This document shows positions 28,501 through 54,902 of a stretch of 64,000 nt of DNA, piece by piece. Every line of letters begins with the position of its first letter. Positions within the stretch are counted from its first letter, which is position 1. Source of the DNA: an uncultured Verrucomicrobiota bacterium (GTDB lineage Bacteria > Verrucomicrobiota > Kiritimatiellia > RFP12 > UBA1067); the NCBI GenBank assembly GCA_946623785.1, contig CAMORM010000001.1, positions 1,397-65,396 on the forward strand. Reading direction: 5' to 3'. A program made the position numbers and the translations under genes. The notes under the pieces were generated by a model that had not been told where the DNA came from, made no database searches, and saw only the letters and a program-made list of their open reading frames with translations.

Positions 28501-31500
28501 AGAAGCAGCGCGTGCCGATGCTCCAGAAGCTCTTCCGAAACATTCCGCTTCTCAAGGACCATCTGTCCAGCTATATGAGCGAACAGCTCGGACGCGCTCC
28601 GACCACGCAGGAGGAGATGGCGGACTACCTGTTCACGGTGATTTCGAACACCAAGAGCGACGGTGGCGTTGCGCTGATTGGTGTTCCGCCCGTGCAGTCG
28701 CTTGAAGCGGTCGCTACTGAGACAAGTGGAGAAGGACCGCAGAATGGGTGGGAGCAGACGTTCCTTCCGACGAGCCAAGAGGATGCTGAGGCCGCGCGAA
28801 ACACCACGCCGAAGGCCACGGAGAACACGCGGCAGGCGCTAGGAGACCTGATTGTCAATTCGCTCAAGGACGGCGTTGTCCGGTCTAAGAACAAGAGCCT
28901 GGTCCAGCAAGTCGCGGCATTCCTTGAAGGGCTTGGCGTGGATGTCACCGACGCGAAGATGGAAGGCGAGGAGTACACCGTCAAGATCGACGCGAACGAT
29001 ACGGTGAACGCGCTGATGTATCTGCTTGCCGGTAGCGGAGGCGAGGCGGGTGCTGCCGAGGCCGTCAACACCATCATCAAACTCGCTGACGCGCTTGACA
29101 AGAATGTCAACGTCGACGAGCAAGGAAACATCAGCTTCGTTGACCGCAACGCGGAGAGCGAAGCGACGTCAGACGCCGCGCAAGAGCAGAGAGCGGAAGA
29201 AGGCGAGGGAAAGAAGGAAGAGCCCGCGAAAGAGCCTCAAACGGAACCGAAGCCCGAAGAGCCGAAGACGGCGGAGAATCCTCCTGCGCCAGCAAAGCCG
29301 AAGGAGGAGCCAAAGAAACAGGAACCTCCGAAAAAGGAGAAGTCTGAATCTGGACGCGATATGGGGTATCCAGAGCCTGAGGACGCATACATCACTCCTA
29401 CGAATGGAACCGTCTATGACATGGGCGGGAAGTCTTCAGGCAACTTCGACATGTCCGAGATCTTCAACGGTCTTACAGACGAAATTGAGAAGCGCGCCAA
29501 GGACCATCCTGGTGAAGCGCAGATTGTCAGAGTTCCCGTGAAGAACGGTCCCGAAGGAGCGGCATACATTGAGTTCTCGGTTCTCCGCAAAGGCGACGAA
29601 CTCAGCGTGTCGGCACCTAGAATCGTCGATGCAAGCGGAAACCAAGTGAAGGGGGTAGCAACAAAAGGCGTCAACCTTCAGACGGATTCGCAGCAGGTTT
29701 CGAAGAAGACCCTCAAAAATCCGAACAACGAGCAGAAGGCCGAGGCGAAGGCGAACAAGGAAAGGGCCGCTGCCGCCGCAGACGCGATCCAGAAGCAGCT
29801 TGACGCTCGTGAGAAAATCAACAAGAAGGCGCAGGAGACTACGTCGTCTCCTTATGGCCCTCGTGCAAAGAATCCAACAGCAATCGAGCGCGGCGAGATG
29901 CCGCAGCCTCGTGGCGAGGGCAGCCCGCTGGCTCGCGGGCCTGAACCGACTCCGCAGAACGCGCGCGTTCCCCGTTCGTTGAAGCGCGTCTCGATGACGG
30001 ATCTCGGTCCTGTCGGCGAGGGCAGCCCGCTGGCCAAGGTCGACATGGCGCAGAAGAAGACCAAGGTCCGCACGGACGCGAACGGGAAGAGAACGCTGAA
30101 GAAGCAACCTCGCAGCGTCAAGGAAATCAGCGCAGAACTTGAGAAGGCGAGCGACGCATTCTATGCCGAGCATGTAATGGATGACGGGCTCTTCTATGAC
30201 GATCAAATTCGGGACGGAGGTAGGGTCGACTGGAGCGAAGTTCCGGAAGGGGATCGACCAGAGATTGTCAACGGATGGCGCTTCCACAAGATGGATGCTA
30301 TATACGGAGACGGCAGTTCGTCCGGTTGGGTTGTAACTCTTGACGAGCAGTGGAAGCCGTTCAAGAAGAAGATGACAGCTCTTGAGAAGGAGCTTGCCGA
30401 TGCGAAGAAGCGCGAGTCTGAGGAAGATTCCAATGTTCCACAGCCTGTCGCACCTGCTGCTCCTACTCAGGCGGTTCCTGTCCAGCAGAACATTCCTCAG
30501 CCAGCGGAGCCAGCCGCACAATCCGCAAAGCAACGCGTTTCGGAAGCAGTCGGCAAGGGAACAGAGGGGATCGTCAAGGCGGCGTCCGATCTCTCCGGCA
30601 TCGACGTTGGCGAGTATCTCGTTGAGGACTACGTGAGCGACACGGCACGCGCAAAGCCGCACCAGCCGTACACTCGCTACGTCCCTTCCGATGCGGACTA
30701 CCGCGGGGACATCCCAATTCACGTTGGCGTGCTTGCCGGGTTCACTTCGGAGCGGTTCGACGGACTGACCGACGAGGAGCAGCAGTACAACACTGTCCGC
30801 ACCGTCACGAACTCCGGCATCGCCGAGAGGATTCGCGACGACTTCGAGTCGATGGCGGACCGGCTCAACGACAACAGCGCAGGGCCTCTCTCCGACCAGG
30901 ACATCGGTCGCGCTCTTGCTCTTTACGCGTGGCTGTCCGACGGCACGAAGGGGGCCGACGGAGACTTCGGCGAGATGCTGTCGCAGGCGTCGGACTTCAT
31001 GGACGAGCGCGGGATGGACAACTGGGCGGACGAGGTCGCGGATCGCGCAGGTGACTTCATGGAGGCGATGGAGGGCTACGCGGAGCGCGAACTCGGCGTG
31101 GAGCTGTCTGAAGGCGAGGTTCGCGGAGAGGCTGCGAACGAGGAGGGTGAAGACGCGGAGCCGATTCGTCCGAAGATGGAGTTCGACGGACGTTTCGAAT
31201 CTATTGACAGCAAGGAGCAGGGAAGGGTTCTTGGCGAGGTCGAAAGGACGGCGCTGAACGTCATCGACGACCTCATCTTCGCCGCGTCTCCGATTGACGC
31301 GAAGCGGACGAAGGAGGCTGATTCGCTGGCTCATTCTATGATGATGCTGCCGTTCCAGTCATACAAGCTGTTGAACGAAGAGCAGCAGAAGCGCGTCGCC
31401 GCTCTTGTCGGTTCGTTCGTCGACAGCGAGGTGCCGGACAGGAATGCGAGCCCGGACCAGAAGATGCTCGAGCTTCTGGTCGACGCGATGTACGAGAAGC

Positions 31501-34500
31501 TCGCCGCCGAGCAGAACGTCGACTATGCAAAGCTTGGCCGTGATGCGGTAGACGCGAACGACAAGAGGATGTCCGTGTTCGATGACGGACCTGATGCCTC
31601 TCGCGTGAAGAGAGGCATCGTTGAAGATATGGTCTTCAACCTCTTGTCGCGAGCGGCTGGAATGAAGGCTACGGCGCACTATTCGAGGTTCGCGTCCGAC
31701 CAGACCGCCAGATTCGCGAACATGGACACGCTCCGCAAGGCGAACCCTCCGCTCGACTCGCTCCTGCGGTACATCGGAAACAACCTCACGGGGCGTCGGC
31801 GCGTATTCCAGAATCCAGCTCATCACTTCCAGATCGAACGAGACGAGGAATCCCCTCGCGCGGCGGTTCGCAACGCCATCCGGTTCATCCGCGAAAAGGG
31901 ATTCCCGGAGTGGGAGATCCGCGACGCGCTCCGCAAGGAGTGGGGCTCCGGGTCCGTTGTCGAGCGCGAGCTCATCAAGCAGATGGTCATCCGCGACGAG
32001 CGACGCGCCGGGAGGAACATCACATACACAGGGTGGAAGCTCGGAGAGGGCCTGTCCACGCGGGACGTGGATGCGTTCAACGAGACGATGAAGGCGGTCG
32101 GGCAGCCGACCACGATGGACGGCGCGTTCACGGACATCCAGCGCGTCGATTACGTTCTCGACGAGAATGGGAACACGTTCGAGCGGCAGGTGCCGTGGGA
32201 CGACACCACGCTGGAGAAGGCTCAGCTTGCCACCATCACGCGCAATCTTCTGAACGAGGCGGACGATGCGGCAAGCGCGATGCTCGGGAAGGTCGAGTTC
32301 CTGACGGACTCAGAACTCAAGGAACTGGACGGTGCGTTCGCCGCGCAGGCGAAGCTCAAGCGACTCTACAACCGTCTGACTGGCGTAAAGGAGGAGAACG
32401 CCGGAAGCCAGGATCGCAGTCAGACGGCGCGAGTCGCGGACAGCATGGCGCGCCAGCCGGACCGCGCGGCGAACGGACTGTTCTCCGCGTCCGCGCTTCA
32501 GCACCACCGCTCGCTTGCGAACAAGCGGTTCGACGCGATCTCGACGGCCATCCGCTCGTCGCGCGAGAACAAGCCGTTCGGCGCGCAGCCGCTCTTTGAC
32601 GAGAAGGCTGAGGCGAGGGTTCAGAGCCTTGTCTCCATGCCGGCGATGGGCGGCAGGATGTCGCTTGCCGATGCGATTGCGAAGGATGACGCCGCGGCAG
32701 GAATCTGGGCGGCGAGGTCGGCGATCATGTATGCCGAGATGTCGCCGAAGAGCGAACTGTCCGGCTCGCTCGTCCAGCAGGTTGCCGCGCGCATCGCCCG
32801 CATCTTCGCAGACGCGTTTCCGGAGCAGGCCGAATGGCTCGACCCGAAGGCGGACAACAAGAAGGCGACGAGGAACAATCCGCTCAAGCCCACGCAGATC
32901 CTTGCATGGAAGGGCGGCACGATGCTCGACGAGGTTGTCAAGTACGAGCTCGGGCCGGAAGGGACGCGCGACCTCGGTTCCCTCCTGTTGCTCGGGCCGG
33001 AGAACGATGTTGCGTCCTACGTTCGGACGCCTGTCGCCATTGACATGATTCTTCGCGCTCTGGAGCAGGTCGCTGCCCGCAACGAAGGAGTCCCGGATGC
33101 AGTGTTCGAGCGCATCGACGCGCTCCGTCACTCGCTTGAACGAATCGTTCTCGGATTCTCGATGGACGTGAAGCAGCCTCGGATGTTCGAGATTCAGGCG
33201 ATGCAGGGCGTCCGCAATGTTCTTGCTGAAAAGTTCCCGATCCGTGACTTCTCGGATGCGGTGATCTCCGGCGTAGACGAGGAGCTTGAGCGGAGGGAGA
33301 GCAGGGTCGAGAAGACCCGTGGCACGCCCGTCGACGAAATGCTCGACGCCGTAAATGCCGAGAACGGTCTGGACGAAGCAGGGTTCGACGAGGGCGAAGA
33401 AAACAGAGACGCGACCGGAGAGTCTGCCGAGATGGCCGAGCAGCGCAGGCTTGACGAAAGGGACGCCGCACAGTCTCGCTTCGCGTCGGACGCGTCTCTC
33501 GCGCTTGCCGACCCGAACACGGTCGCGTCTGCGCTTGTCGCATTTCGCGTAAAGAACAATGACGGTTCGTTCTCCTACTCCACGCGCGTTGCAGACGCTC
33601 TGCAATATGAGCGGATTCTGAAAAACGATCCAAGCTACACGTTCTGGAAGGAAAAGACGGACTACGACAAGCTGATGGAGCAGACGAAAGCCCGGCTGCA
33701 GAACGACCCCGGAGCGATCCAGCAGCTTGTCCAGGACGTTCTCAACGCATGGGACAAGACGGAAGCGACGGGTCGGCGCGCGGACTTCCGCGTGTCCGCA
33801 TCGCAGCTTCTCGACCTCAGGGCCAATCTAATTATGAGGCAGGCGGAAGTCAAGAAGGCGACGGACGCGCTGTTTGAAGCCGAGGCCAAGAGCGACGGGT
33901 CCGTGAACATCCAAGACCTTCGCGCCGCCGTTGCGGAGAAGGAGGCGCTTCTCTCGCAGGCAGTCCACGCCACGGCGTTTGCCGAGTCGGCAGCTGGCAC
34001 GGCGCTCGGTTCGCTCTCGCGTCTCGTCAAGGAGGACTTGTCTCTGGGCGAGCAGATGAGGCAGGCCGAGAAGGTCATCCGCAACACGAAGGGAATCGCC
34101 GCGGAAAACCGCGGTCCGCTCACAGCCGCAGAGATCGCGAAGCTCAAGGAGATCGCGGGCAAGTACGAGAAGGTCTGCAAGGAGCGCGACGCGCTTCTCA
34201 AGGAGAAGCAGGATGGATGGCGAAAGGAGCACGTCGACGGGAAGATTGAAGAAGGCATCCGCGAGGCGCGCAAGGGCAAGGCTGCAGGACGCAAGGCGAA
34301 GTCCGTAGCGGAGGCGGTGGAGGCTGCGCGCAAGGAGCTTGCGGACGGCGAGATGGTGGACATCTCGGTCTACCCGGAACTCTGGGCGCAGATCGGCGAC
34401 GCGGTGAAGGGAATCGCGCAGGCCATCATCGGAGAGCATCTGGAAGGGCCGTCGCGGCTCAAGGCGCTCGACCACGCGGAGTTCGCTCGTCGGCTCCTCG

Positions 34501-37157
34501 CGGAGACGAATCGCGCCTACGAAGGCCGCATCACCTCGCGCGACACGAACCACCAACAGCTCACGGAGCGCGACGTGATGGACCTTTTCTCGGACTACGG
34601 CGACCCGGAGAAGCTGCAGACCGACTACGACATCGCCGCGACGGAAGAACTGGAGCGCATGAAGAGCCAGTCGGCAAGGATGAAGGAACTTGCAAGGCTT
34701 CAGTCCGCGCTCGAAGACGTCAAGGCTGGCAGGCCTCCTCTCGAAGCATTCGGGCATCTGAGCAAGCTTGGTCCCACGCAGATTGACGAGGAGCTGGCGC
34801 GCGTCAGGAAGGAGCTGGACGATGCGTTCCGCCAGTCCGGCATCTCGACCGACCTGCTTCACCGCAAGATGAGTCCGATTGACCTAGCGCGCGAAAGTCT
34901 GGAGCGGCGCATCGAGGAAATCAAGAAGAACCTCGCGGCAGGAGAGATCGCGAAGAAGGAGGGGCGCGCGCCTCTCGTTGGCGAGGAGGGACTTGCGTCG
35001 CTCCGGGAGGAGCTCGCGTTCCTCCAGTCCGTGCAGAACGCCACGTTCAAGAACCGCGGCCTCACCGACAACGAGCGGATGCAGAAGATCGAGGAGATGT
35101 ACCGCAAGCGGGAGAAGGCGGCGAGCGACGAGCTCCTGCGCCTGATGTCCGGCGGGCGTCCGGTGAAGCCGCTCGACATGAGCGACGATGGTGCGAGGAG
35201 CGCGTGGGCTCACGCGGACGCGGAGTGGAAGAAGAAGGCCGGAGAGGCGAGGCGCGCGGCCGCCGCCGCTTCGCGCAACCTCAACGAACTGCGGAAGGCG
35301 CTCCAGTCAGAATCCTACAAGGGCGAGCGCGCGCTCGAGATGGCGATCGCTAGGAAGGAGGACCTCGCTGCACGATGGCGCGACGCGCTAGCGGCAGGTC
35401 GCGTCCAGATTATCGACAAGAGCCGAAACGGCAAGTACGACCAGTACGACCGTCGGCTTCTTGAGGTCAACCGCGAACTCAAGAACCTCGTTCGTCAGAA
35501 GAACGAGCGCATCGCGCAGATCGCGTTCGACCGCAAGAACAAGTTCGCGCAGGTTGTGTCGAAGATCTGGCAGGCGCCAAACCTCCAGCGCATCGTCCAG
35601 GCGTCCGGAGACCTTTCGTCCATCGGCGTCCAATGCGCCGTCGCGGTCCTCGCGAACCCCATCCACGGCATGCGTGCTGTCATCCCCGGCATCAAGGCGT
35701 TCTGGGGCGGGCTGTTCAACAAGCCGGAGTATACGGAGGCGTTCTTCGAGAAGCTTCGGCAGGACCCGGACTTCAACCGCATCGCCGACTTCGTGGCCAT
35801 CCCGGAGACGGACGGGAAGGGCGGGTTCCTTCAGGGCGGAACGGAAGAGTTCTTCAACCGCAAGGCGGTGCAGGACAGGTTCCCGAAGCTGTTTGGCTTC
35901 GACCTGTTCGACAACGCATACCTTCGCGCGTCAGAGGCCGGGTTCAACGTGCCGGTAGCGCTCATCCGATTCTCGCTAGCAAAGAAGCTCATCCAGCAGA
36001 TGCGTACGTTCCGCGGCGAGAACTACAAGCCGACGGACGATGAAATGCGTCTCATCGGCAACGTGGTCAACGCTGCGACCGGCAAGGGCAAGTGGCTTGC
36101 GGACGGAAGCAAGGTTAATCTCTCCGGCCTTCTTTGGGCGGCTAGCCGCGTGTCTGGACAGGTTGAGAGCCTTGCGATTGTACCGAGGCTTCTTGCTCAC
36201 GGCGAGGTCGGTGGAGATGTTCGTAGGATGATCGCAAAGGAACTCATCCTTCGTCCGATGCTGCACTTTGCGGAAGCGATGCTTCTGCTTGGACTGGCGC
36301 ACGCGATGTTCAAGGACGAGGACGACGACGATCCGTTCCTCGAGATCGACCCGCGCAGCAGCAAGTTCCTGCGCGCGAAGATCGGGAACCGCTACATCTC
36401 CATCACGGGCGGTCTTGAGCAGTACGTCGTCCTTCTTAGCAAGGCCGTCTCCGGGCAGGTCAAGACGAAGGATGGCGAGATCATCAAGTTGCGCGGAGAA
36501 GGCGCGGCATACGGACGCGCCTGGTCGGACGAGCTGTCGAGGATGTTCTGGAGCAAGATTCGCCCTGACGTCGGCCTCGCAAAACAGCTCATTGATGCTA
36601 GAACGGCGACAGGCAAGCGCATCCAGCCGACGTGGTTCGGCAAGGACGGACGCCTGCTGTTCCTCGTCAACAACACCGTCATGCCGCTCACGGCCCGTGA
36701 CATCATCGAGGCAGGCGTCGACATCGGCGAGAACGGGATGGGCGTGACAACCGCGCTTGCGTCAATCGCCGTCCTCGGCTACAACGGCAGCGACTTCGGA
36801 GAGAATGCCTACACGAAGGACCGGGCGAAGATTGACCGCGTGGCGCAGGCCCGCCGCGACATGAAGAACGGCAAGGAAGGCGCGGACGAGAAGTACGCCG
36901 CGATCGCCGGACAGGAGGCGATGCAGCGCTACATCTCGGCGTCGGAGAGCAAGCGCGTCAAGAAGATCGGAGACCGCATCACCGAGCTGGACGAGCTTCT
37001 CGAGCGAGGGGAGCCGAAGCGCGCGAAGAAGAACGGCCCCATCCTCTCGCGCCGGATGCTTACGCGGCAGGAGCGCAAGGAGGCGCGAGAGGAGAAGGAG
37101 CGGCTCGAGGCCGAGTACCACGAGCTCGTGTGGCCCGAACTCAAGCGGATTCGATAG
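25563..37157 (+). CDS. giant multi-region protein (3864 aa) with a zincin-like HExxH motif (HESFH at residues 881-885) and hydrophobic C-terminal segments; candidate virion-packaged ejection or polyvalent protein
   Basis: one uninterrupted 11,595-nt frame with uniform GC3 bias; start 4 nt after the preceding stop; acidic N-terminus, long Ala/Lys/Glu helices, HExxH, repeated GEGSPLA; no NTPase motifs seen. Confidence 0.55.
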   Translation: MPIDNINDPWRNEEEEPEIQAAHHPVQQQQTEEGSDLGGLPEVSREEQSRVYLDALARSQGAERFEQEQKPEPEPTQNGPSPNDIVEVAGQPQQETQEPPPDPYAPTWEQKHDIRHVDYGMGMDDERRARDKLVDQIKAQVRFARDHGQDVTNEEWGDNEQIDAVLNGYGVRENFSPEATDMLNRFAEHVGVKYQAAKDEMGRLEGVVNTAKNTLNPNAIVEGWAETTKTLGWMTGSVSDQDFEDYLLDKMDKDELSRISDPGKVEGLKDVHGVLDAFALVGNVFAEQSSIIAESMIVAGLSAATGGAAAGAFGGARLAAREAAEKAVRKAAQKEIRKIAEKKALEATARKAGAAAAKAATEAAARKATAKSIGSNIGALVVDAQFNLGSSAEQRMSEAMARGSTHIDKGAVFGQAAGRTFADYFGPIRKMATRPFRAGTTIQQMAADGVLTDARTFAGGLVGAGARYAKDAFGAGLSFEGETISDRITNKVINDTYLLNGERDWTDAFASDLETFVKGGIMSVTGIPSLARRSFAEVQMNRAVDAFADTNGAAFDNAFAKSRRERDTFASPGFRSLDLTSQRSILEMNRLKAKLDQENNLAKSGTAGEIGEAAGNAFQIQNQIDKLRETLSPEGRKWVDAYNSQFNRPGVGMQDFDKAVKSDPNVAAKLQTEYAPDVSGVDQVVDWVSKLVGKELSYDNIRNAANENGGLVIDSGNVRIRIDDGLENGLVVSVCRTDGGPMADTYVSEFRQADFAEDGESVDSSDAFYKTLQAATGCARKLSSWAKWSDAQTYGRDMSFANALAQKSGRNVTIIRSARDLVNAGLVDERGIFKGSNEQVLGDLPNGLNGKWRGVTTGDGHIYVNASAYRSPAELAAIIDHESFHSRFIEMVKNGVGEKEAQKIAADFERKYGRPLSADNLKRAMKATILGVELTADDFAGLNDDAVDQKLAKTLTKKLDDALVSREERLAYDSEGMIPQKQRVPMLQKLFRNIPLLKDHLSSYMSEQLGRAPTTQEEMADYLFTVISNTKSDGGVALIGVPPVQSLEAVATETSGEGPQNGWEQTFLPTSQEDAEAARNTTPKATENTRQALGDLIVNSLKDGVVRSKNKSLVQQVAAFLEGLGVDVTDAKMEGEEYTVKIDANDTVNALMYLLAGSGGEAGAAEAVNTIIKLADALDKNVNVDEQGNISFVDRNAESEATSDAAQEQRAEEGEGKKEEPAKEPQTEPKPEEPKTAENPPAPAKPKEEPKKQEPPKKEKSESGRDMGYPEPEDAYITPTNGTVYDMGGKSSGNFDMSEIFNGLTDEIEKRAKDHPGEAQIVRVPVKNGPEGAAYIEFSVLRKGDELSVSAPRIVDASGNQVKGVATKGVNLQTDSQQVSKKTLKNPNNEQKAEAKANKERAAAAADAIQKQLDAREKINKKAQETTSSPYGPRAKNPTAIERGEMPQPRGEGSPLARGPEPTPQNARVPRSLKRVSMTDLGPVGEGSPLAKVDMAQKKTKVRTDANGKRTLKKQPRSVKEISAELEKASDAFYAEHVMDDGLFYDDQIRDGGRVDWSEVPEGDRPEIVNGWRFHKMDAIYGDGSSSGWVVTLDEQWKPFKKKMTALEKELADAKKRESEEDSNVPQPVAPAAPTQAVPVQQNIPQPAEPAAQSAKQRVSEAVGKGTEGIVKAASDLSGIDVGEYLVEDYVSDTARAKPHQPYTRYVPSDADYRGDIPIHVGVLAGFTSERFDGLTDEEQQYNTVRTVTNSGIAERIRDDFESMADRLNDNSAGPLSDQDIGRALALYAWLSDGTKGADGDFGEMLSQASDFMDERGMDNWADEVADRAGDFMEAMEGYAERELGVELSEGEVRGEAANEEGEDAEPIRPKMEFDGRFESIDSKEQGRVLGEVERTALNVIDDLIFAASPIDAKRTKEADSLAHSMMMLPFQSYKLLNEEQQKRVAALVGSFVDSEVPDRNASPDQKMLELLVDAMYEKLAAEQNVDYAKLGRDAVDANDKRMSVFDDGPDASRVKRGIVEDMVFNLLSRAAGMKATAHYSRFASDQTARFANMDTLRKANPPLDSLLRYIGNNLTGRRRVFQNPAHHFQIERDEESPRAAVRNAIRFIREKGFPEWEIRDALRKEWGSGSVVERELIKQMVIRDERRAGRNITYTGWKLGEGLSTRDVDAFNETMKAVGQPTTMDGAFTDIQRVDYVLDENGNTFERQVPWDDTTLEKAQLATITRNLLNEADDAASAMLGKVEFLTDSELKELDGAFAAQAKLKRLYNRLTGVKEENAGSQDRSQTARVADSMARQPDRAANGLFSASALQHHRSLANKRFDAISTAIRSSRENKPFGAQPLFDEKAEARVQSLVSMPAMGGRMSLADAIAKDDAAAGIWAARSAIMYAEMSPKSELSGSLVQQVAARIARIFADAFPEQAEWLDPKADNKKATRNNPLKPTQILAWKGGTMLDEVVKYELGPEGTRDLGSLLLLGPENDVASYVRTPVAIDMILRALEQVAARNEGVPDAVFERIDALRHSLERIVLGFSMDVKQPRMFEIQAMQGVRNVLAEKFPIRDFSDAVISGVDEELERRESRVEKTRGTPVDEMLDAVNAENGLDEAGFDEGEENRDATGESAEMAEQRRLDERDAAQSRFASDASLALADPNTVASALVAFRVKNNDGSFSYSTRVADALQYERILKNDPSYTFWKEKTDYDKLMEQTKARLQNDPGAIQQLVQDVLNAWDKTEATGRRADFRVSASQLLDLRANLIMRQAEVKKATDALFEAEAKSDGSVNIQDLRAAVAEKEALLSQAVHATAFAESAAGTALGSLSRLVKEDLSLGEQMRQAEKVIRNTKGIAAENRGPLTAAEIAKLKEIAGKYEKVCKERDALLKEKQDGWRKEHVDGKIEEGIREARKGKAAGRKAKSVAEAVEAARKELADGEMVDISVYPELWAQIGDAVKGIAQAIIGEHLEGPSRLKALDHAEFARRLLAETNRAYEGRITSRDTNHQQLTERDVMDLFSDYGDPEKLQTDYDIAATEELERMKSQSARMKELARLQSALEDVKAGRPPLEAFGHLSKLGPTQIDEELARVRKELDDAFRQSGISTDLLHRKMSPIDLARESLERRIEEIKKNLAAGEIAKKEGRAPLVGEEGLASLREELAFLQSVQNATFKNRGLTDNERMQKIEEMYRKREKAASDELLRLMSGGRPVKPLDMSDDGARSAWAHADAEWKKKAGEARRAAAAASRNLNELRKALQSESYKGERALEMAIARKEDLAARWRDALAAGRVQIIDKSRNGKYDQYDRRLLEVNRELKNLVRQKNERIAQIAFDRKNKFAQVVSKIWQAPNLQRIVQASGDLSSIGVQCAVAVLANPIHGMRAVIPGIKAFWGGLFNKPEYTEAFFEKLRQDPDFNRIADFVAIPETDGKGGFLQGGTEEFFNRKAVQDRFPKLFGFDLFDNAYLRASEAGFNVPVALIRFSLAKKLIQQMRTFRGENYKPTDDEMRLIGNVVNAATGKGKWLADGSKVNLSGLLWAASRVSGQVESLAIVPRLLAHGEVGGDVRRMIAKELILRPMLHFAEAMLLLGLAHAMFKDEDDDDPFLEIDPRSSKFLRAKIGNRYISITGGLEQYVVLLSKAVSGQVKTKDGEIIKLRGEGAAYGRAWSDELSRMFWSKIRPDVGLAKQLIDARTATGKRIQPTWFGKDGRLLFLVNNTVMPLTARDIIEAGVDIGENGMGVTTALASIAVLGYNGSDFGENAYTKDRAKIDRVAQARRDMKNGKEGADEKYAAIAGQEAMQRYISASESKRVKKIGDRITELDELLERGEPKRAKKNGPILSRRMLTRQERKEAREEKERLEAEYHELVWPELKRIR

Positions 37158-48143: not shown

Positions 48144-48824
48144 TTAGAACGTGACGATGTTCTCGATGCGGCGGTCGACGCCGGTGAGCTGGAGCCAGCC
48201 AACGGAGTCGCACAGGCGGCTCACGGTGCGCTCGTCGTAGCGCTTGGCGAGTCCGGCCATGTCGAGGTTCGTGGTGACAATGAACTTGACGCTCGGCTTC
48301 TCCGCAATCGCGGCGATGCAGTTGCGGATCACGTCTGAGCGGGTGCCGTAGGAGTTGACCGTCGGCTCGACGCCGGCGTCCTCGATCCAGTAGTTGCCGC
48401 CACGGGCGTTGGAGATCTCCTCGATCCTGTCGGGCGACAGCGATGCGACGGCGTAGCAGTCAACGCGGACGGGAGGCACGAGCGTCGGAGGCGAGTACTC
48501 GGACAGTCCCTTGAACTCACGCGTAAGCAGGCCGTCCGCAATCGCCTTTGCCGCGCAGGTCTTTCCTCGCCCGGTCGGTCCCCAGATCACGAGGCCACGG
48601 ATGCGGCCTTCTACCATGGCGTGACAGGCATTGAGAACGCGAAGGAAGTCCGGACCCGCGACAGGACGCGTGTAGCCTCCTTGCTCTACGAAAAATCCGA
48701 TGTTGTCGTCTTTGCGCCACGGGATATGTTCCTCGATGTCGCGCGCTTCGTCCTTCGGCACGGCGTTTTCGGCAAGGCGCTTGCACATGCCGTCCGCGAT
48801 GTTCTGGATTGTGTCTTGGTTCAT
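48144..48824 (-). CDS. P-loop ATPase, DnaC/IstB-like helicase-loader candidate
   Basis: Walker A GPTGRGKTCAAKAIA; Walker B-like KFIVTTN; next to the putative initiator. Confidence 0.5.
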   Translation of the reverse strand: MNQDTIQNIADGMCKRLAENAVPKDEARDIEEHIPWRKDDNIGFFVEQGGYTRPVAGPDFLRVLNACHAMVEGRIRGLVIWGPTGRGKTCAAKAIADGLLTREFKGLSEYSPPTLVPPVRVDCYAVASLSPDRIEEISNARGGNYWIEDAGVEPTVNSYGTRSDVIRNCIAAIAEKPSVKFIVTTNLDMAGLAKRYDERTVSRLCDSVGWLQLTGVDRRIENIVTF

Positions 48825-49019: not shown

Positions 49020-49793
49020 TCAGAATGTTGGGGGTGTGGGTGTGGTGATGGGTGAACTTCCGTATGTCTGCCCGAGCTTGGACCAGTCGGTCGGCTCTGG
49101 GTTGTAGAACTTGGTCGGGTCGGCCGTTGACGGCGGAGTGTTGCGCTGCCGCTCCCACGTCCGTACCGCAGCCTTCCAGTCCTTCATCTGGTTCTTCCCG
49201 ATCATCCAGCCCTTCGACTCGTAGAAATCCACGAACGCCTGTGCGTCGACTCCGTTCTGCCGTTCGCGGCAGTAGGCGGCGACCTCGAACACGTCGGGCT
49301 TCTTGAACTTGGCCTTGGCGGCTGGCGGAGTCGGCTTGGCGACAGGCTCGGCGACGAGGGCGAAGTCGGTCGGCTCGGAGGGAGCCTCGACGGGTGGCTC
49401 GGGATGGGTCGAAGGGGGTTCTTCTTTCGAAAGAACTATGTTCTTTCTTTCTTCTACAGGTGTCAGTCTAAGGGTAACTTCTCCATCAGACGCGGGTGCG
49501 CGCGTTATGGCATTCTGGGTTTTGTCTGGGTTTTGTCTGGGTTTATTCTGGGTTTTATCTGGGTTATTCTGGGTTTTCGGTCTGCCGCCTTTTGCGCCGT
49601 TCCGACGGGAGATTTCCGCCAGCCGGATGATGTCGTCGCACTCGTCCTTGATGTGCGGCGGCAGCAGAGCCTCGACCCCATTCCCGGCGAGGTAGGCGAG
49701 GACGGTCTTGGCGATCCGTCCGGCCTCCTCGTTTGACGAGGCGAAGCCGATTGCCGAGGCGGCAAGTGGGCCGATTGTGACTTGACCTTTCAT
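49020..49793 (-). CDS. putative replication initiator/replisome organiser with internal iterons (257 aa)
   Basis: N-terminal helix-turn-helix-like region; repeated PDKTQN encoded by the 11-bp DNA repeats; C-terminal FVDFYESKGW...DWKAAVRTW DnaD-like motif; position beside loader and SSB. Confidence 0.35.
   Translation of the reverse strand: MKGQVTIGPLAASAIGFASSNEEAGRIAKTVLAYLAGNGVEALLPPHIKDECDDIIRLAEISRRNGAKGGRPKTQNNPDKTQNKPRQNPDKTQNAITRAPASDGEVTLRLTPVEERKNIVLSKEEPPSTHPEPPVEAPSEPTDFALVAEPVAKPTPPAAKAKFKKPDVFEVAAYCRERQNGVDAQAFVDFYESKGWMIGKNQMKDWKAAVRTWERQRNTPPSTADPTKFYNPEPTDWSKLGQTYGSSPITTPTPPTF
49512..49580. repeat. six tandem 11-bp repeats TCTGGGTTTTR (candidate origin iterons) inside the initiator gene
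   Basis: TCTGGG recurs at 49514, 49525, 49536, 49547, 49558 and 49569 with exact 11-bp spacing. Confidence 0.6.
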
Positions 49794-49890
49794 TGGCTTT
49801 GGAAAAGGGAATGGGGCTACCGCTCACTACCCCCATTCGACCGGGGCCAACACCTACGGAGACGAAGGCGAGCGGCCCGGGTTCCTTTCG

Positions 49891-50907
49891 CTAGAGGGTG
49901 TCGGGGATGTCCTCGATCTCGTCCTCTGGGGTATAGGGCAGGTCGGGCGGCGGCGTGCGCGTCTCGGGGGCGGGCGGCTCCGCTGGCGGCTCGGGCTCGT
50001 TCGCCTTGGCGGCGGCCGCGGCAGCAGCAGCCTTCTCCGCCAGAGTGGGCTTCTTGGCCTTCGGCGTCACGTTCACGGTCGCCTTCGCCTCCACGATGTT
50101 CTGGTCGAAGAAGTCCTCCGGCTTCGCCATGCCGTCCTTGAGCGAGACGAAGATCTTGCGGAGCGCGATGACCTGCGCCGGAGTGATGGCGTCGAGGTTG
50201 CGCTGGATCTTCGCCACGATCTGCGACTTCGTGACGCCGAGCTTGGCGAACGCGTCCACGAGCTTCTTGATCGTGGCCTCCGAGATGTCGGCGGTCGCGG
50301 TGAGCGTCTGCTCGCACTGGTTCACGGCGCTCTCGATCACGTCGCCGGGAATGCACTCGAGAATGCAGGCACGGACGCGGCGCATCGCCTCGTTCGCGAC
50401 CTTCTCGTAGATGTCGCGCGGGTCGGTGAGCAGCTTGTCCCCGTTCTTCGTGTGCCGGATGTGCGAGACGACGAACGCCCGCTCGACCGGGATGTTGGAC
50501 TCCATGTCGTAGGCGTAGCACAGCACCTCGGTGTTGAGCTTGTCGCTGCCCGTGACCTTGAACCCGTACTTGATGTTGCCCCATGCGCGGGCGGCCGCCT
50601 CGGCAAGCCGGATGGACGGGCCGGTGATGTCCGTCCCCATCCGTGCGTAGGTGTAGACCGCCTGCTCGGCCAGAGTGGGGCGCTGGCAGGCGACGAGGAG
50701 CTTCTCGACGGACTTCGCCTCGTCGCGCGGCCACTGCTTGGCGGCCATGACCATTGCGAAGGACTCGGCCTGTGCCTTGGCCTGCGCGATCTGGACCTCG
50801 GAGCTGCTGGCTCCGGCGGCGATGGTGGCGAGGGAGGACGCGGCGTCCGCCGGGGTGGCGGCGGCGACGGCTCCGTAGGGATTGTCAACCTTGACGATGT
50901 TAGCCAT
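49891..50907 (-). CDS. recT: RecT-family single-strand annealing protein
   Basis: QRPTLAEQAVYTYARMGTDITGPSIRLAEAAARAWGNIKYG core; acidic C-terminal tail; adjacent YqaJ exonuclease. Confidence 0.6.
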   Translation of the reverse strand: MANIVKVDNPYGAVAAATPADAASSLATIAAGASSSEVQIAQAKAQAESFAMVMAAKQWPRDEAKSVEKLLVACQRPTLAEQAVYTYARMGTDITGPSIRLAEAAARAWGNIKYGFKVTGSDKLNTEVLCYAYDMESNIPVERAFVVSHIRHTKNGDKLLTDPRDIYEKVANEAMRRVRACILECIPGDVIESAVNQCEQTLTATADISEATIKKLVDAFAKLGVTKSQIVAKIQRNLDAITPAQVIALRKIFVSLKDGMAKPEDFFDQNIVEAKATVNVTPKAKKPTLAEKAAAAAAAAKANEPEPPAEPPAPETRTPPPDLPYTPEDEIEDIPDTL

Positions 50908-50939: not shown

Positions 50940-51923
50940 TTACTTGCCGGCCGAGAGCCGGAAGATTCGGGATCCGGGGCGGGTGGTGGTGTGCGCCCCG
51001 ATGACTGCGCTTGCGGCGTCGTGATCGCCGTAGGCGTCGGCAAGCTCTTCGAAGGCGGCCTTCCAGTCCACCTTCTCCACGTCCTTGCCGGTCTTCCAGG
51101 TGACGAGCTTGCGGTGGTCCGGAGTCTCGAGAACCTCGGCAGCCTTCATCGCGGACTGGATGATGAACTTCTGCTGCTCGAGATCGTCCTCGGCCTGCTT
51201 CACGACTGCGGCGAGTCGCATGTACTCGTTGTAGGCGGCCATCACGTCATCGTCTGCGATGCACTTGAGCCCTTCCTCGTGGCGCGGGAACATGACCTTC
51301 AGGTCGTCCTCGTCCTGCGGAGGCGGCGGCGTTTTCGTGCGAACGTACTTCGTCCAGAACTCATCTGCCACCTTCGCCATATCGGCGATGAGCGAATCGT
51401 CCCTCTCGACATGATAGATGCGGAACGTGCCGAGCGACAGGAACAGGACCGGAACGTCAACGACCTTGACGGTCGGCATCAGTCCCATGTAGTGCTGGAT
51501 TTGCGTGATGTAGTGGTCCGGCACGCGGTCCCACTCGGCCATCTCGCTCGTTGTCTTGATCTCAAGGGCGCGCTCCGTCACAACGCCCATGTTCCTGCGC
51601 CAAGGGAGCTTGCCGTCCTCGCAGTAGACGAGCCGGTCCACGTTGCCGATCCGGTGCCCGCTCCCTTCCAGCTGGATGTTGCACTTGCGGACCTTTCGCC
51701 CGCTCTGCTCCGTGTACATCTCAGCAGCCAGCGGCTCGAGCGCCGTGCCGATCCGCTGCCGGACGGTTGGCATGTCGATGGCCGGACCGTCGTCCGTCTT
51801 GTCCATCCAGACATTGAGGCTTGTGCGCCATGGGCTCACACCAAGGAGGGCGGCCATGTCCGACCCGCCAACTCCTGTCTTGCGGCGTTCGAGCCATTGC
51901 TCTTTGTTGATGGTTTTAGCCAT
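50940..51923 (-). CDS. YqaJ-like viral recombinase exonuclease (PD-(D/E)xK, lambda Exo-like)
   Basis: GVGGSDMAALLGVSPWRTSLNVW N-terminal motif; internal ATG chosen over the long track ORF. Confidence 0.6.
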   Translation of the reverse strand: MAKTINKEQWLERRKTGVGGSDMAALLGVSPWRTSLNVWMDKTDDGPAIDMPTVRQRIGTALEPLAAEMYTEQSGRKVRKCNIQLEGSGHRIGNVDRLVYCEDGKLPWRRNMGVVTERALEIKTTSEMAEWDRVPDHYITQIQHYMGLMPTVKVVDVPVLFLSLGTFRIYHVERDDSLIADMAKVADEFWTKYVRTKTPPPPQDEDDLKVMFPRHEEGLKCIADDDVMAAYNEYMRLAAVVKQAEDDLEQQKFIIQSAMKAAEVLETPDHRKLVTWKTGKDVEKVDWKAAFEELADAYGDHDAASAVIGAHTTTRPGSRIFRLSAGK

Positions 51924-52374
51924 TGTTTCGTCGTGTCTTTGTTGTTGTTGGTTGCGGAATTGAGTAGTAGATGGAGCGGTGGTTCGATGCTCCACTTGTC
52001 CGTCGCTCAAGAACGAGCAATCCCTCGGCGCACATTGCCGACAGGAACCTCGCCTTGTGAGCCGAGCGGAGTCCAGGAACCTCGAGCTCGTCGCCACGGA
52101 TTGTGGTCTTGCCCGTGTCGCAGAACTGCGCTAGGACAGCCTTCTTCATGCGGTCCAGCTCGTCCTCGAAGGTGCCGCCACGGCAGATCGCATCGTGCCG
52201 CTCGGTTAGCAGTCGCGCCTGGAGCGAGAAGCAGTCCCTGCATCTGGATCGGTTGACGCAGACCTTGCACCGATTCGCGACGATGCCGATGTATCCTCTG
52301 GCGTCGCGCACCCATGCGTCAGCCGCGTCAATTCCAGTAGTGGGAAACTTTCCTCGTCCAAGCGCATCTGCCAT
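51916..52374 (-). CDS. Cys-rich hypothetical protein (152 aa)
   Basis: CKVCVNRSRCRDC; codon bias. Confidence 0.35.
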   Translation of the reverse strand: MADALGRGKFPTTGIDAADAWVRDARGYIGIVANRCKVCVNRSRCRDCFSLQARLLTERHDAICRGGTFEDELDRMKKAVLAQFCDTGKTTIRGDELEVPGLRSAHKARFLSAMCAEGLLVLERRTSGASNHRSIYYSIPQPTTTKTRRNNG

Positions 52375-52378
52375 ATCC

Positions 52379-52804
52379 TTACGCGTCCTTTCTTACGTAT
52401 GGTTGTGCCCCCGGAGAGTAGCGCCGGAAGTCTACGTAGACGCCGGAGCCGACGTAGGAGCGGTACCACTCCATCACGCCAGGCGTGAAGCGGCGAGTCG
52501 CCACGCCAAGCCGGTAGTGGGGTAGGGGGTTCCTCTTTCGGTTGCACATCCGATAGAGCTGCATCCTCGTGAGAGGCTTGCCATCCTCGCCGGGGATGGA
52601 CTCGGCGAACTCCTCCTCGGTCAGCAGGCCGGGGATGTAGTGGACGGGCTGGATCGCAACGGCCTTCTCGTTGAGGACGCGGCAGACCGCCTCCTCGCTG
52701 ATCCTCCCGCCGGGGCAAACGCTCTCGGGGAAGATCTGCGCCATTGCCCTGTTGGACAGCTTCAGCAGCTGCTGAACGCGCTTGCGCTGATAGGTCGCAG
52801 GCAT
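52379..52804 (-). CDS. hypothetical protein (141 aa) downstream of two operator copies
   Basis: ATG at 52804 preceded by an AAAAGAAAAAGG region; operators at 52828 and 52870 lie just upstream. Confidence 0.4.
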   Translation of the reverse strand: MPATYQRKRVQQLLKLSNRAMAQIFPESVCPGGRISEEAVCRVLNEKAVAIQPVHYIPGLLTEEEFAESIPGEDGKPLTRMQLYRMCNRKRNPLPHYRLGVATRRFTPGVMEWYRSYVGSGVYVDFRRYSPGAQPYVRKDA

Positions 52805-52806
52805 GG

Positions 52807-53028
52807 CTAGTTCGCCTTTTTCTTTTCGGTGTAGCCACACCCAATAGCAGAAGCACGGCGCTTCCCGCAGGTGTAGCCACACCCAATAGCGGAACGCACG
52901 AAGCGCGTGAACGCCTCGTTGCACGTGATGCCGAGGGCGTTCGCATAGCCCTTGATGAATGCCGCCTCCGTGTCTGTTGCGCGATAGGCGAGGGGAGTGT
53001 CTGTCTGGACGGATTGTGAGTTGGTCAT
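52807..53028 (-). CDS. putative ribbon-helix-helix protein (73 aa); its 3' end is encoded by operator repeats
   Basis: EAAFIKGYANALGITCNEAFTRFVRSA resembles an RHH fold; the tandem AIGCGYT segment derives from the repeated DNA, so the true C-terminus is uncertain. Confidence 0.3.
   Translation of the reverse strand: MTNSQSVQTDTPLAYRATDTEAAFIKGYANALGITCNEAFTRFVRSAIGCGYTCGKRRASAIGCGYTEKKKAN
52828..52883. promoter_or_regulatory. two copies of inverted-repeat operator GGTGTAGCCACACC (+CAATAGCRGAA), 42 bp apart
   Basis: GGTGT/ACACC arms with a 4-nt spacer at 52828-52841 and 52870-52883; third copy at 53297. Confidence 0.45.
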
Positions 53029-53030
53029 CT

Positions 53031-53243
53031 CTATTGCTTCTTTACGTTGTTTGTGTTGTTCTGTTTCGCTGCGCGCTCCTTGGCACGCGCATTCTCGTCA
53101 ATCGCAGCATGGAGCAGGTGCCGGATAAATGTTGTTGCATCCGGCTCGCCGCTCTCTTTGACGAGACGGTTCAGCTCCGCGCGCTCGTCCTTCGTGAGGA
53201 AGGCGCGGAACAGTACCTTGTCGTCCGATCTCTTGTTGGGCAT
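53031..53243 (-). CDS. ribbon-helix-helix (Arc/MetJ/CopG-like) DNA-binding protein (70 aa)
   Basis: KVLFRAFLTKDERAELNRLVKESGEPDATTFIRHLLHAAI has a beta-strand/helix/helix pattern; AGGAGA ribosome-binding site; sits right behind an operator-containing promoter. Confidence 0.45.
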   Translation of the reverse strand: MPNKRSDDKVLFRAFLTKDERAELNRLVKESGEPDATTFIRHLLHAAIDENARAKERAAKQNNTNNVKKQ

Positions 53244-53285
53244 GGCTGTTGTCTCCTGTCTGTTGTTGCGTTCGTTGTGCCCCTA

Positions 53286-53314
53286 ATTGTAGCACAGGTG
53301 TAGCCACACCGCAA
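53286..53314 (-). promoter_or_regulatory. sigma70-like promoter TTGCGG-17-TACAAT with operator GGTGTGGCTACACC in the spacer
   Basis: read on the - strand: TTGCGGtgtggctacacctgtgcTACAAT, then AGGAGA and ATG 53243. Confidence 0.45.
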
Positions 53315-53327
53315 GCGGAAAATGAGG

Positions 53328-54047
53328 CTACTCCAGCTTTTTTTTGAGCCCCTCTAGCGGGTTGGTCTCAATGAGTTTAAGTGGTTCGTTCTTCAATATG
53401 AACTGCGGCGCCTCGATGTTGTACGTGACGGCCTGCCCGATGTTCACGGTGTTCTTCGCCTCCGATTTTTCCTGCCTCATCCTTGCACCGAACTCAGCGG
53501 CCTTGGCGATCAGCGATTCGCTGTCCTGCGTGACCATTCGGATTTCGTCCGTATCCTTGTCGACGCGGACAACGACCGGCTTCACGACGCCCTTCTCGGC
53601 CTTGGAGCGGAGAAGCTCCTGCGACCGCTCGGCCTGCCCGTCCTCGCGGATCCGCATCGCCGCAGCCCAGACGAGTCCGAACCCCTTCTTGTCGATGCTC
53701 GAGCAAGCATGCAGCCGAGTCCACGTCATCCCGGTCGCAACTTCGATGTCGTGGAACCTCTCGCCCTTTGCGACCATGGCAACGGCCCAGAGCAGATGGT
53801 CTAGGACCGGATCGAACTCAGGACGGATTCGGAACTCCTCGCCCCTTTTGAGCTGGGCCTTCGCATCGTCGGCCGCGATGAGGATGATGTCCTGCGCCGC
53901 GGCGACGAGCGACTTGTTCGGCTTGCCCTTGACCATTGTCTTCCAGTTTGCGATCCACTCGGTGAGAGTCTTCTCGTTTCCTGGATGGGCGAGGGTTCCG
54001 ACCTGGATGAGTTCGGACTTGCCCGGCGTGTTCGGCTTTCCCGGCAT
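53328..54047 (-). CDS. hypothetical protein (239 aa) with perfect AGGAGG ribosome-binding site
   Basis: internal ATG at 54047 with AGGAGG 7 nt upstream; a weak GGTGCAGGTGTAGAAT site lies upstream. Confidence 0.45.
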   Translation of the reverse strand: MPGKPNTPGKSELIQVGTLAHPGNEKTLTEWIANWKTMVKGKPNKSLVAAAQDIILIAADDAKAQLKRGEEFRIRPEFDPVLDHLLWAVAMVAKGERFHDIEVATGMTWTRLHACSSIDKKGFGLVWAAAMRIREDGQAERSQELLRSKAEKGVVKPVVVRVDKDTDEIRMVTQDSESLIAKAAEFGARMRQEKSEAKNTVNIGQAVTYNIEAPQFILKNEPLKLIETNPLEGLKKKLE

Positions 54048-54839: not shown

Positions 54840-54902
54840 TGTGCTCTCCTTTCGTTGGATTGAGCGCCCCATTATAGCAGGGGCGCTTCCAGATTTCAAC
54901 CA

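Follow-up and report, generated by a model that had tools for sequence, protein, structure and literature searches.

Palindromic sites at a promoter and downstream of it as candidate operators of a small ribbon-helix-helix repressor in an uncultivated phage

Arc and CopG, two repressors of the ribbon-helix-helix (RHH) type, recognise operators made of two inverted 4-bp boxes placed 5 bp apart; the resulting symmetric element of 13 bp overlaps the promoter and accommodates one RHH dimer per half (PMC2724298). CopG of pMV158, a minimal RHH autorepressor, shares a transcript with the gene under its control, and its 13-bp element overlaps the -35 region of the promoter Pcr (PMC2724298). The present analysis concerns a comparable arrangement in a 64-kb stretch of contig CAMORM010000001.1 (64,000 nucleotides, hereafter referred to as the window), which looks like most of a ~77-kb phage genome. 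It comprises three copies of a palindrome (op1, op2 and op3), a promoter that holds op3 in its spacer, and the gene of a 70-aa protein, RHH1, that directly follows this promoter; the next open reading frame (ORF), of 73 aa, is referred to as RHH2, and a gene for a 141-aa protein of the HTH_17 family follows it. For operators situated downstream of a promoter the lac operon offers a reference, in which O2 lies 401 bp downstream, inside lacZ.

The three palindromes are probably double-stranded DNA operators of a small phage repressor, for which RHH1 is the most likely candidate, with op3 serving autorepression and op2 and op1 acting as auxiliary sites. This reading, held with moderate confidence, is drawn from comparison of the window with related sequences on metagenomic contigs, and a layout of one site in the promoter spacer and two sites ~400-450 bp downstream is kept in ten metagenomic lineages.

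Palindromic sites and their promoter

The 14-mer GGTGTAGCCACACC (pattern GGTGTNNNNACACC, GGTGT-N4-ACACC) is present in three exact copies in the window, each match being identical, against a mean of 0.05 pattern matches in shuffled sequence; none of 100 shuffles reaches three. When up to three mismatches are allowed, two extra matches, both with three mismatches, appear elsewhere in the window, as expected by chance. In an unbiased count of 12-mers the palindromes are the only ones present at least three times within 500 bp, besides a tandem array near 49.5 kb. Located 427 bp (op2) and 469 bp (op1) downstream of op3, the two distal copies are 42 bp apart and both fall within the final 27 codons of the 73-aa ORF, whose tail from residue 51 they encode. 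The initial annotation had placed the repeat at 52828, 52870 and 53297, the third copy in the 17-bp spacer of TTGCGG...TACAAT, and the genes at 53031-53243 and 52379-52804 with an ORF between them; the match statistics, direct reading of the sequence and gene calls in related contigs bear out all of these positions.

The promoter lies within the 84-nt gap between the gene for a 239-aa protein and RHH1. Its hexamers, TTGCGG and TACAAT, are separated by 17 nt, and op3 covers the final two bases of the -35 hexamer and stops 5 nt short of the -10 hexamer. Inverted GGTG/CACC boxes 5-6 bp apart within a promoter spacer correspond to an operator of the Arc/CopG type as defined previously (PMC2724298). 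An internal promoter at op1/op2 was also considered and rejected, as the upstream flank GCTATNN does not represent a conserved -10 and a -35 is likewise not retained.

The strongest sigma70-like promoter of this arm of the genome is a different one, located upstream of the cassette at 54899..54871 (- strand; TTGAAA-17-TATAAT with TGn, 11/12 matches). Its -10 is flanked by an 8-bp inverted repeat, AGCGCCCC...GGGGCGCT, which L001 and L006 retain and which could be another operator.

Conservation across related lineages

Many metagenomic contigs code for the 70-aa protein, and two sets of contigs were compared with the window. The close set consists of six further lineages whose RHH1 proteins are 70-90% identical to that of the window, the contig of one of them (L018) stopping after op3. 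The distant set (L021, L023, L024, L027 and L029) consists of contigs from five of the 23 clusters that make up the 141-aa protein family among 1.84 billion representatives in a full HMMER scan, with 141-aa homologues 35-40% identical.

All close lineages that span the full region carry three GGTGT-N4-ACACC sites in the same places. The site varies only at positions 6 and 9 (centres GGCT, AGCC, GGCC and AGCT), which gives a half-site GGTGTR, and op3 is found in either orientation (GGCT or AGCC centre). The block CTTGC-GGTGTRGCYACACC-YGTG-S-TAYAAT is otherwise unchanged across seven lineages. Between RHH2 and the next gene, op1 and op2 stand out as invariant islands amid DNA rich in indels and substitutions; their spacing in the close lineages is 42, 68, 73 or 80 bp, with 427-450 bp between op3 and op2, and the distance from op1 to the following ATG is 1-25 nt among the relatives. 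The -35 hexamer TTGCGG is unchanged across the seven related lineages and is replaced by TTGACA, TTGACG or TTGCAA in the distant ones, while the -10 appears among the relatives as TATAAT, TAGATT or TAGTAT, the perfect TATAAT being present in several close lineages.

The distant lineages retain the gene order and the cis layout with site sequences that differ (table), and in an unbiased count on these contigs the site is essentially the sole 12-mer present three times. In all lineages except L021, inverted GGTG/CACC boxes lie flush between the -35 and the TGTG extended -10, 6 bp apart in the window and L023 and 5 bp apart in L024, L029 and L027 (the left box of L027 being GGTA). The initial annotation describes the full 14-mer and overlooks that the conserved core is the shorter GGTG-N5/6-CACC. 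The homologous promoters of L024, L029 and L021 pass the promoter scanner at 10/12; in L024 and L029 the promoter with the site in its spacer is the sole promoter-like match of the whole locus, and in L021 the site-bearing promoter is one of the two strongest matches.

Several features indicate that the sites act as double-stranded DNA. Read as codons of the RHH2 ORF, op2 falls into all three frames, namely frame 0 for L010, L023 and L027, frame 1 for the window, where the peptide is GCGYT, and frame 2 for L024 and L029, so that the constraint is on the nucleotides and not on the protein. The orientation of the site relative to transcription flips between lineages, and the site centres retain a DNA-type twofold symmetry (GGCC, AGCT, AATT) that would be meaningless for a hairpin loop. 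Finally, the site of L027 has no hairpin potential (-0.8 kcal/mol, z = 0.06) and is nevertheless kept three times.

Further elements were noted upstream in some of the distant contigs. In L021, an 80-aa RHH-like gene lies upstream with its own strong promoter (1789-1817, TTGACA-17-TAGAAT), whose spacer holds a further palindrome of 4-bp boxes, GCGG-AAGCAC-CCGC, and this may be a separate autoregulated unit. In L027 (3378-3548) and L029 (1262-1460), divergent small genes are found upstream of the operator promoter; their shared intergenic region contains a large inverted repeat (TTTGCGAAAC...GTTTCGC[G]AAA), and this may be a second control region, of divergent type, which is absent from the window lineage.

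Candidate binder and alternative explanations

The 70-, 73-, 141-, 152- and 239-aa proteins have no significant match in Pfam, PHROGs or NCBIfam, and sequence and profile searches of the PDB with the 70-, 73- and 141-aa proteins return designed repeat proteins only. The profile of the RHH1 family, however, aligns with the same-position proteins of the distant lineages (hhalign probability 95.8%, E 6.6e-9), and these in turn match NikA-like (27.3 bits, cutoff 27), RHH_1 of the CopG family (L023 homologue, sub-threshold, E 0.0019) and CopG_antitoxin (L027 homologue, E 1.2e-4); the first-gene proteins of the distant lineages all start MPNxR or MSNQ. By this transitive homology RHH1 is placed in the ribbon-helix-helix superfamily, as the initial annotation had it. 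The monomer modelled with AlphaFold2 (AF2; predicted local distance difference test, pLDDT, 79) has helices at residues 18-31 and 36-69, and the top ranks of a Foldseek search are nearly all RHH proteins (MazE, NikR, VapB, TacA, CopA, Arc), none of them significant (best E 0.73).

The 73-aa ORF, present in every lineage except L021, had likewise been described as RHH-like, a label that the profile searches do not sustain: no link to RHH families was found in Pfam, PHROG, NCBIfam or PDB, and homology to RHH1 is undetectable (hhalign against the RHH1 families, E 0.36-0.38). Its AF2 model (pLDDT 61) shows coil at residues 1-18, helices at 19-32 and 36-52 and a tail with pLDDT <50, a predicted secondary structure that is compatible with a beta-alpha-alpha fold; the top Foldseek matches include the RHH proteins VapB, MazE, TacA, AvtR and PutA, with a best E of only 0.65. 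The initial annotation counted two RHH proteins at the site and overlooked a third protein that belongs to a DNA-binding family, the 141-aa product, eight of whose 20 aligned family members match PF12728 HTH_17 (best E 7.5e-6), the window protein itself being without a match.

RHH1 is favoured as the candidate binder by three comparisons. In every lineage with GGTGTRGCYACACC as operator, the N-terminal strand region of RHH1 (DKV[LM]FRAFLT) is constant, whereas the equivalent stretch of RHH2 varies (PLAYRAT, PLTYRAN, PLRFEAS; A replaced by T or R, R by E) where the operator is unchanged. Between L021 and L023 the putative recognition regions of the HTH_17 proteins are nearly identical, while the operators are unrelated and the RHH1 strands differ. 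Lastly, RHH1 is the one gene that is always found directly behind the operator-bearing promoter.

The sites, the promoter elements, the arrangement of the operon, the conservation of all these and the constraint on the DNA are observed, and from them the binder, its stoichiometry and the role of the distal sites are inferred. By analogy with Arc and CopG, RHH1 would bind as a dimer of dimers, with one dimer per GGTG/CACC box. When op3 is bound, initiation at the host-RNA-polymerase promoter (TTGCGG-17-TGTGC-TACAAT) would be blocked, so that the operon would repress itself. At the junction of the RHH2 and HTH_17 genes, op2 and op1 would act as auxiliary operators, which could tighten repression by looping to op3, as with lac O2, and/or could block read-through polymerases entering the HTH_17 and recombination genes. 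Five lineages have op2 and op1 separated by a GC-rich hairpin that carries the RHH2 stop codon in its loop or close to it. The hairpin of L024, with its T7 run, amounts to a full intrinsic terminator, and no hairpin of this kind is present in the window lineage. Where the hairpin occurs, RHH1 and RHH2 may form a short, tightly controlled unit, and expression of the HTH_17 and recombination genes would hinge on read-through.

A number of observations weigh against this interpretation. The window promoter matches the Escherichia coli consensus at 8/12 positions (plus TGn), which is below the rule of the promoter scanner, and is unlisted by it; its description as a good sigma70-like promoter in the initial annotation is tenable only because the promoter is conserved and better-matching versions are present in the relatives. 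RHH1 of the window itself fits no RHH profile (Pfam, NCBIfam, PDB sequence), and AF2 renders its residues 7-15 as helix instead of strand. The assignment of RHH1 as binder leans on a handful of lineages, and L023 keeps GGTGT/ACACC half-sites despite a different RHH1 strand (KNINVFLS against KVLFRAFLT in the window), so that the covariation of strand and operator is imperfect. The distance between op3 and op2 varies (398-450 bp) without helical phasing. Moreover, in five lineages just 1-5 nt separate the end of op1 from the start codon of the HTH_17 gene, with no separate Shine-Dalgarno sequence, an arrangement that a purely DNA-level model leaves unexplained; nothing there other than the RRGGTG in the left arm of op1, 11-14 nt from the start codon, resembles such a sequence.

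The same operator logic with a binder other than RHH1 alone, be it RHH2, an RHH1-RHH2 hetero-complex, the HTH_17 protein or the 152-aa protein, is possible and rather unlikely. The sites op1 and op2 occur only where an RHH2 gene separates RHH1 from the HTH_17 gene, L021 having neither; a hetero-complex would account for the asymmetric sites in L027 and L029; and HTH_17 is a DNA-binding domain, with op1 always just upstream of its gene. The change of the putative DNA-facing residues of RHH2 under a constant operator and the comparison of L021 with L023 speak against RHH2 and HTH_17, respectively, and no RHH or other DNA-binding fold is demonstrable for RHH2 by profile or Foldseek searches. It is very unlikely that the repeats act instead in RNA, as hairpins or as an op2:op1 helix that would govern termination and read-through in a nut-like manner or translation of the HTH_17 gene. 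The position of op1 against the ATG in the five lineages and the op2-op1 hairpin agree with such a role, and the op2-op1 region folds far better than its shuffles (z = -3.4 to -7.8). Two copies of a palindrome, however, fold strongly as a matter of course, and an extension of the op2:op1 helix through flank covariation was rejected, the pairing not being maintained (G-1/+1 pair in three of six lineages). In addition, op3 is upstream of the predicted start (~53280-53278) and would be outside the RNA of this operon, the symmetric centres and the unfoldable L027 site are those of a DNA element, and the region has no family match in Rfam. A role for op1 at the RNA level added to its role as an operator is decidedly unlikely. 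Somewhat less so, yet still unlikely, is a composite in which op2, the RHH2 stop codon with its terminator hairpin, and op1 against the HTH_17 start codon form a repressor-gated checkpoint of read-through and translation. One and the same 13-14 bp element would then serve as a roadblock on the DNA and as an RNA structure that hides the sole Shine-Dalgarno-like bases, the asymmetric sites perhaps being read by an RHH1-RHH2 hetero-complex; if true, the phage recombination genes would be under a compact timer of two layers.

Two further functions of repeated palindromes in phage genomes were weighed. Phages of the N4 type possess three hairpin promoters of the early class together with a giant virion protein, and the present phage resembles them in having three copies with 5-bp stems and a 3864-aa ORF. 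That a virion-carried RNA polymerase would use the repeats as single-stranded DNA hairpin promoters is nonetheless scarcely conceivable, and this candidate was rejected: the sites flip although the genes keep one direction, the L027 site is unfoldable, and no family in PHROGs or Pfam, N4-type virion RNA polymerases included, is matched by the giant ORF. Conserved -35 and -10 hexamers also bracket op3, the sites lie in the middle of the arm, away from the genome end, and the position of op1 against the ATG in five lineages leaves no space for a start site. A centromere-like (parS), replication or packaging site, bound by the 239-aa protein or by an RHH partition adaptor, is highly improbable. 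RHH centromere binders that also autoregulate exist, and two distant homologues of the 239-aa protein have sub-threshold ParB_N matches in the same profile region (E 0.12 and 0.065). These matches, far under the gathering score (12.8-13.7 against 26.3 bits), are probably noise even though they recur in the ~240-aa upstream protein; the neighbouring proteins scanned match no ParA- or ParM-type family, an iteron-like array is located elsewhere, near 49.5 kb, and a site placed invariably within the promoter spacer speaks for the control of transcription. Autorepression through op3, most likely by RHH1, is the most economical reading, the layout being kept in the ten lineages while the operator sequence changes.

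Operon setting and comparison with described systems

The op3 promoter is predicted to head an operon of six genes, which code for RHH1, the RHH2-like ORF, the HTH_17 protein, the 152-aa protein, a YqaJ/RecE-like exonuclease and a phrog_3657 protein, with a GC-rich double hairpin (~49885..49801) after the last gene as its probable end. The hairpin at 49801-49838 was missed by the terminator scan because its 14-nt loop exceeds the scanner's rule. The initial annotation had proposed a self-contained autoregulatory switch; the autoregulatory part agrees with the layout described above, and since the promoter heads six genes with recombination cargo, the switch is not a self-contained two-gene one. 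The suggested roles in immunity, as an antirepressor or in toxin-antitoxin control are unsupported because no antirepressor, toxin, integrase, cI/cro-like or repressor family was found among the proteins scanned.

Coordinates and composition of the features in the window and in the related contigs
Feature	Contig	Position	Strand	Details
-35 hexamer TTGCGG	Window	53309..53314	-	Operon promoter; direct reading
TGTGC and -10 hexamer TACAAT	Window	53286..53296	-	TRTGn extended -10; hexamer itself 53291..53286
op3	Window	53297..53310	strand-neutral	14-bp palindrome GGTGTRGCYACACC occupying the promoter spacer, 2-bp overlap with -35
op2	Window	52870..52883	strand-neutral	Candidate auxiliary operator within the RHH2 coding tail
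op1	Window	52828..52841	strand-neutral	Candidate auxiliary operator; ends 23 nt 5' of the ATG of the 141-aa gene
239-aa gene upstream of the cassette	Window	54047..53328	-	Homologue in L027 at 2351-3049
RHH1, 70 aa, candidate repressor	Window	53243..53031	-	ORF; gene-called in related contigs
RHH2-like ORF, 73 aa	Window	53028..52807	-	ORF; gene-called in related contigs
141-aa HTH_17 (excisionase/MerR-like) family protein	Window	52804..52379	-	ORF; gene-called in related contigs
152-aa protein, same operon	Window	52374..51916	-	ORF; no family match
YqaJ/RecE-like exonuclease	Window	51926..50940	-	Pfam YqaJ 4.5e-24; phrog_434 6e-66; start taken from the 328-aa gene call in L001
338-aa protein, last operon gene	Window	50907..49891	-	phrog_3657, E 9.7e-84
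Terminator-like hairpin GAATGGGG-N14-CCCCATTC then CCTTTTCC	Window	49838..49801	-	Second of two consecutive GC-rich hairpins, ~49885..49801
op2-op1 hairpin	L024	567-592
op2-op1 hairpin	L010	1741-1764
op2-op1 hairpin	L014	880-915
op2-op1 hairpin	L019, L020			Equivalents
op1-abutting ATG	L014	923-940
op1-abutting ATG	L020	884-901
op1-abutting ATG	L024	601-619
op1-abutting ATG	L027	3987-4003
op1-abutting ATG	L029	1912-1932
Promoter TTGCAA-TGTAATTACACCTTGTG-TATACT	L023			GGTGTAATTACACC 10 nt 5' of the HTH_17 ATG; degenerate copy 62 bp upstream of that
Promoter TTGACA-GGTGGCAATCACCTGTG-TTAGAT	L024			Identical 13-mer (GGTGGCAATCACC, three times) within the RHH2 tail and again 3 nt 5' of the ATG; true intrinsic terminator between
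Promoter TTGACG-GGTATCAAGCACCCGTG-TTAGGA	L027			Non-palindromic 13-mer GGTATCAAGCACC three times in one orientation; last ends 1 nt before the ATG
Promoter TTGACA-GGTGTGTTCCACCTGTGC-TAGATT	L029			GGTGTGTTCCACC once; its reverse complement twice downstream
TTGACA-T-ACTAGTC-ACCTTC-GACTAGT-AT	L021			Single site ACTAGTC-N6-GACTAGT; no RHH2 gene between RHH1 and the HTH_17 gene

The structural arm of the phage, on the plus strand, codes for a portal/adaptor-like protein and ends with the 3864-aa ORF (25563-37157, +). The other arm consists of small minus-strand genes, including those for PcfJ, the RecE/YqaJ exonuclease and a DnaC-like loader, and all genes of the arm that holds the palindromes are co-directional. 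The segment 51800-54500 has no blastn match among the INPHARED phages. Searches of IMG/VR for relatives of the 141-aa protein, with either the single protein or an alignment, were negative, and a metagenome scan for them returned two near-identical contigs only; none was found among the GTDB genome representatives, and consequently these give no prophage or host clue. The promoter-RHH1-RHH2 segment (52760-53400) is ~99% identical among contigs (compared with L001-L005), while its flanks are only ~90% identical to the window, a pattern that suggests either recent exchange or an unusually strong constraint.

The tandem array mentioned above consists of six repeats of ~10-11 bp (AAAACCCAGAAT / AACCCAGAY) at 49505-49575 (-), inside a 257-aa ORF (49793..49020, phrog_15768) situated just upstream of the gene for the DnaC-like helicase loader (48824..48144). 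By analogy with lambda O, it looks like an iteron-type replication origin within an initiator gene.

The analysis supplies a concrete, testable regulatory circuit for an uncultivated family of ~77-kb phages in which almost no proteins have family matches, and sets out for it the promoter and its predicted start, the three proposed operators and a few candidate binders. The ten lineages, in which the site position is fixed and its sequence changes, constitute a small natural dataset on RHH specificity and the co-evolution of operators. The use of host-type promoters with a TRTG extended -10 by these phages is of help in host inference and annotation.

Among the systems described, type II antitoxins of the RHH class (RelB, VapB, MazE, ParD) share with the present locus a small RHH gene that is first in its operon and a palindromic operator in its own promoter, together with a weak resemblance in profile and fold. 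They differ in that here an RHH2-like ORF and an HTH_17 protein follow, and as no toxin follows, the locus is not a toxin-antitoxin module; no toxin family was found among the 73-, 141- and 152-aa proteins in Pfam and NCBIfam, the PADLOC library having been left out. With the lac operon the locus shares a primary operator at the promoter and auxiliary copies ~400-450 bp downstream in coding sequence, the repressor being of another family, the distances unphased and looping only proposed.

The likeness is closer to Arc and its promoter Pant in phage P22, where a small RHH repressor also heads the operon that it represses, a boxed symmetric operator overlaps the promoter and a second small RHH-type gene is associated, the RHH status of the second gene being only putative here. 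The cargo differs, consisting here of the HTH_17 and recombination genes, and two extra operators lie ~430 bp downstream. No sequence likeness between Arc and RHH1 was detected, and the Arc structure 1par ranks 38 in Foldseek (E 8.3). Since the locus has no antirepressor gene, no divergent Mnt-like gene and no divergent Pmnt-type promoter, it falls outside the arrangement of P22 immI. CopG and Pcr offer a parallel in an RHH autorepressor co-transcribed with its target genes, in inverted 4-bp boxes and in the overlap with the -35; the differences are a plasmid in place of a phage, another cargo, and one extended region of ~50 bp where three dispersed operators are found here. No general concept is altered by the module, which by analogy would work in the manner of the Arc/Pant and CopG/Pcr autorepressors and would thus be a fresh example of a familiar switch rather than a new kind.

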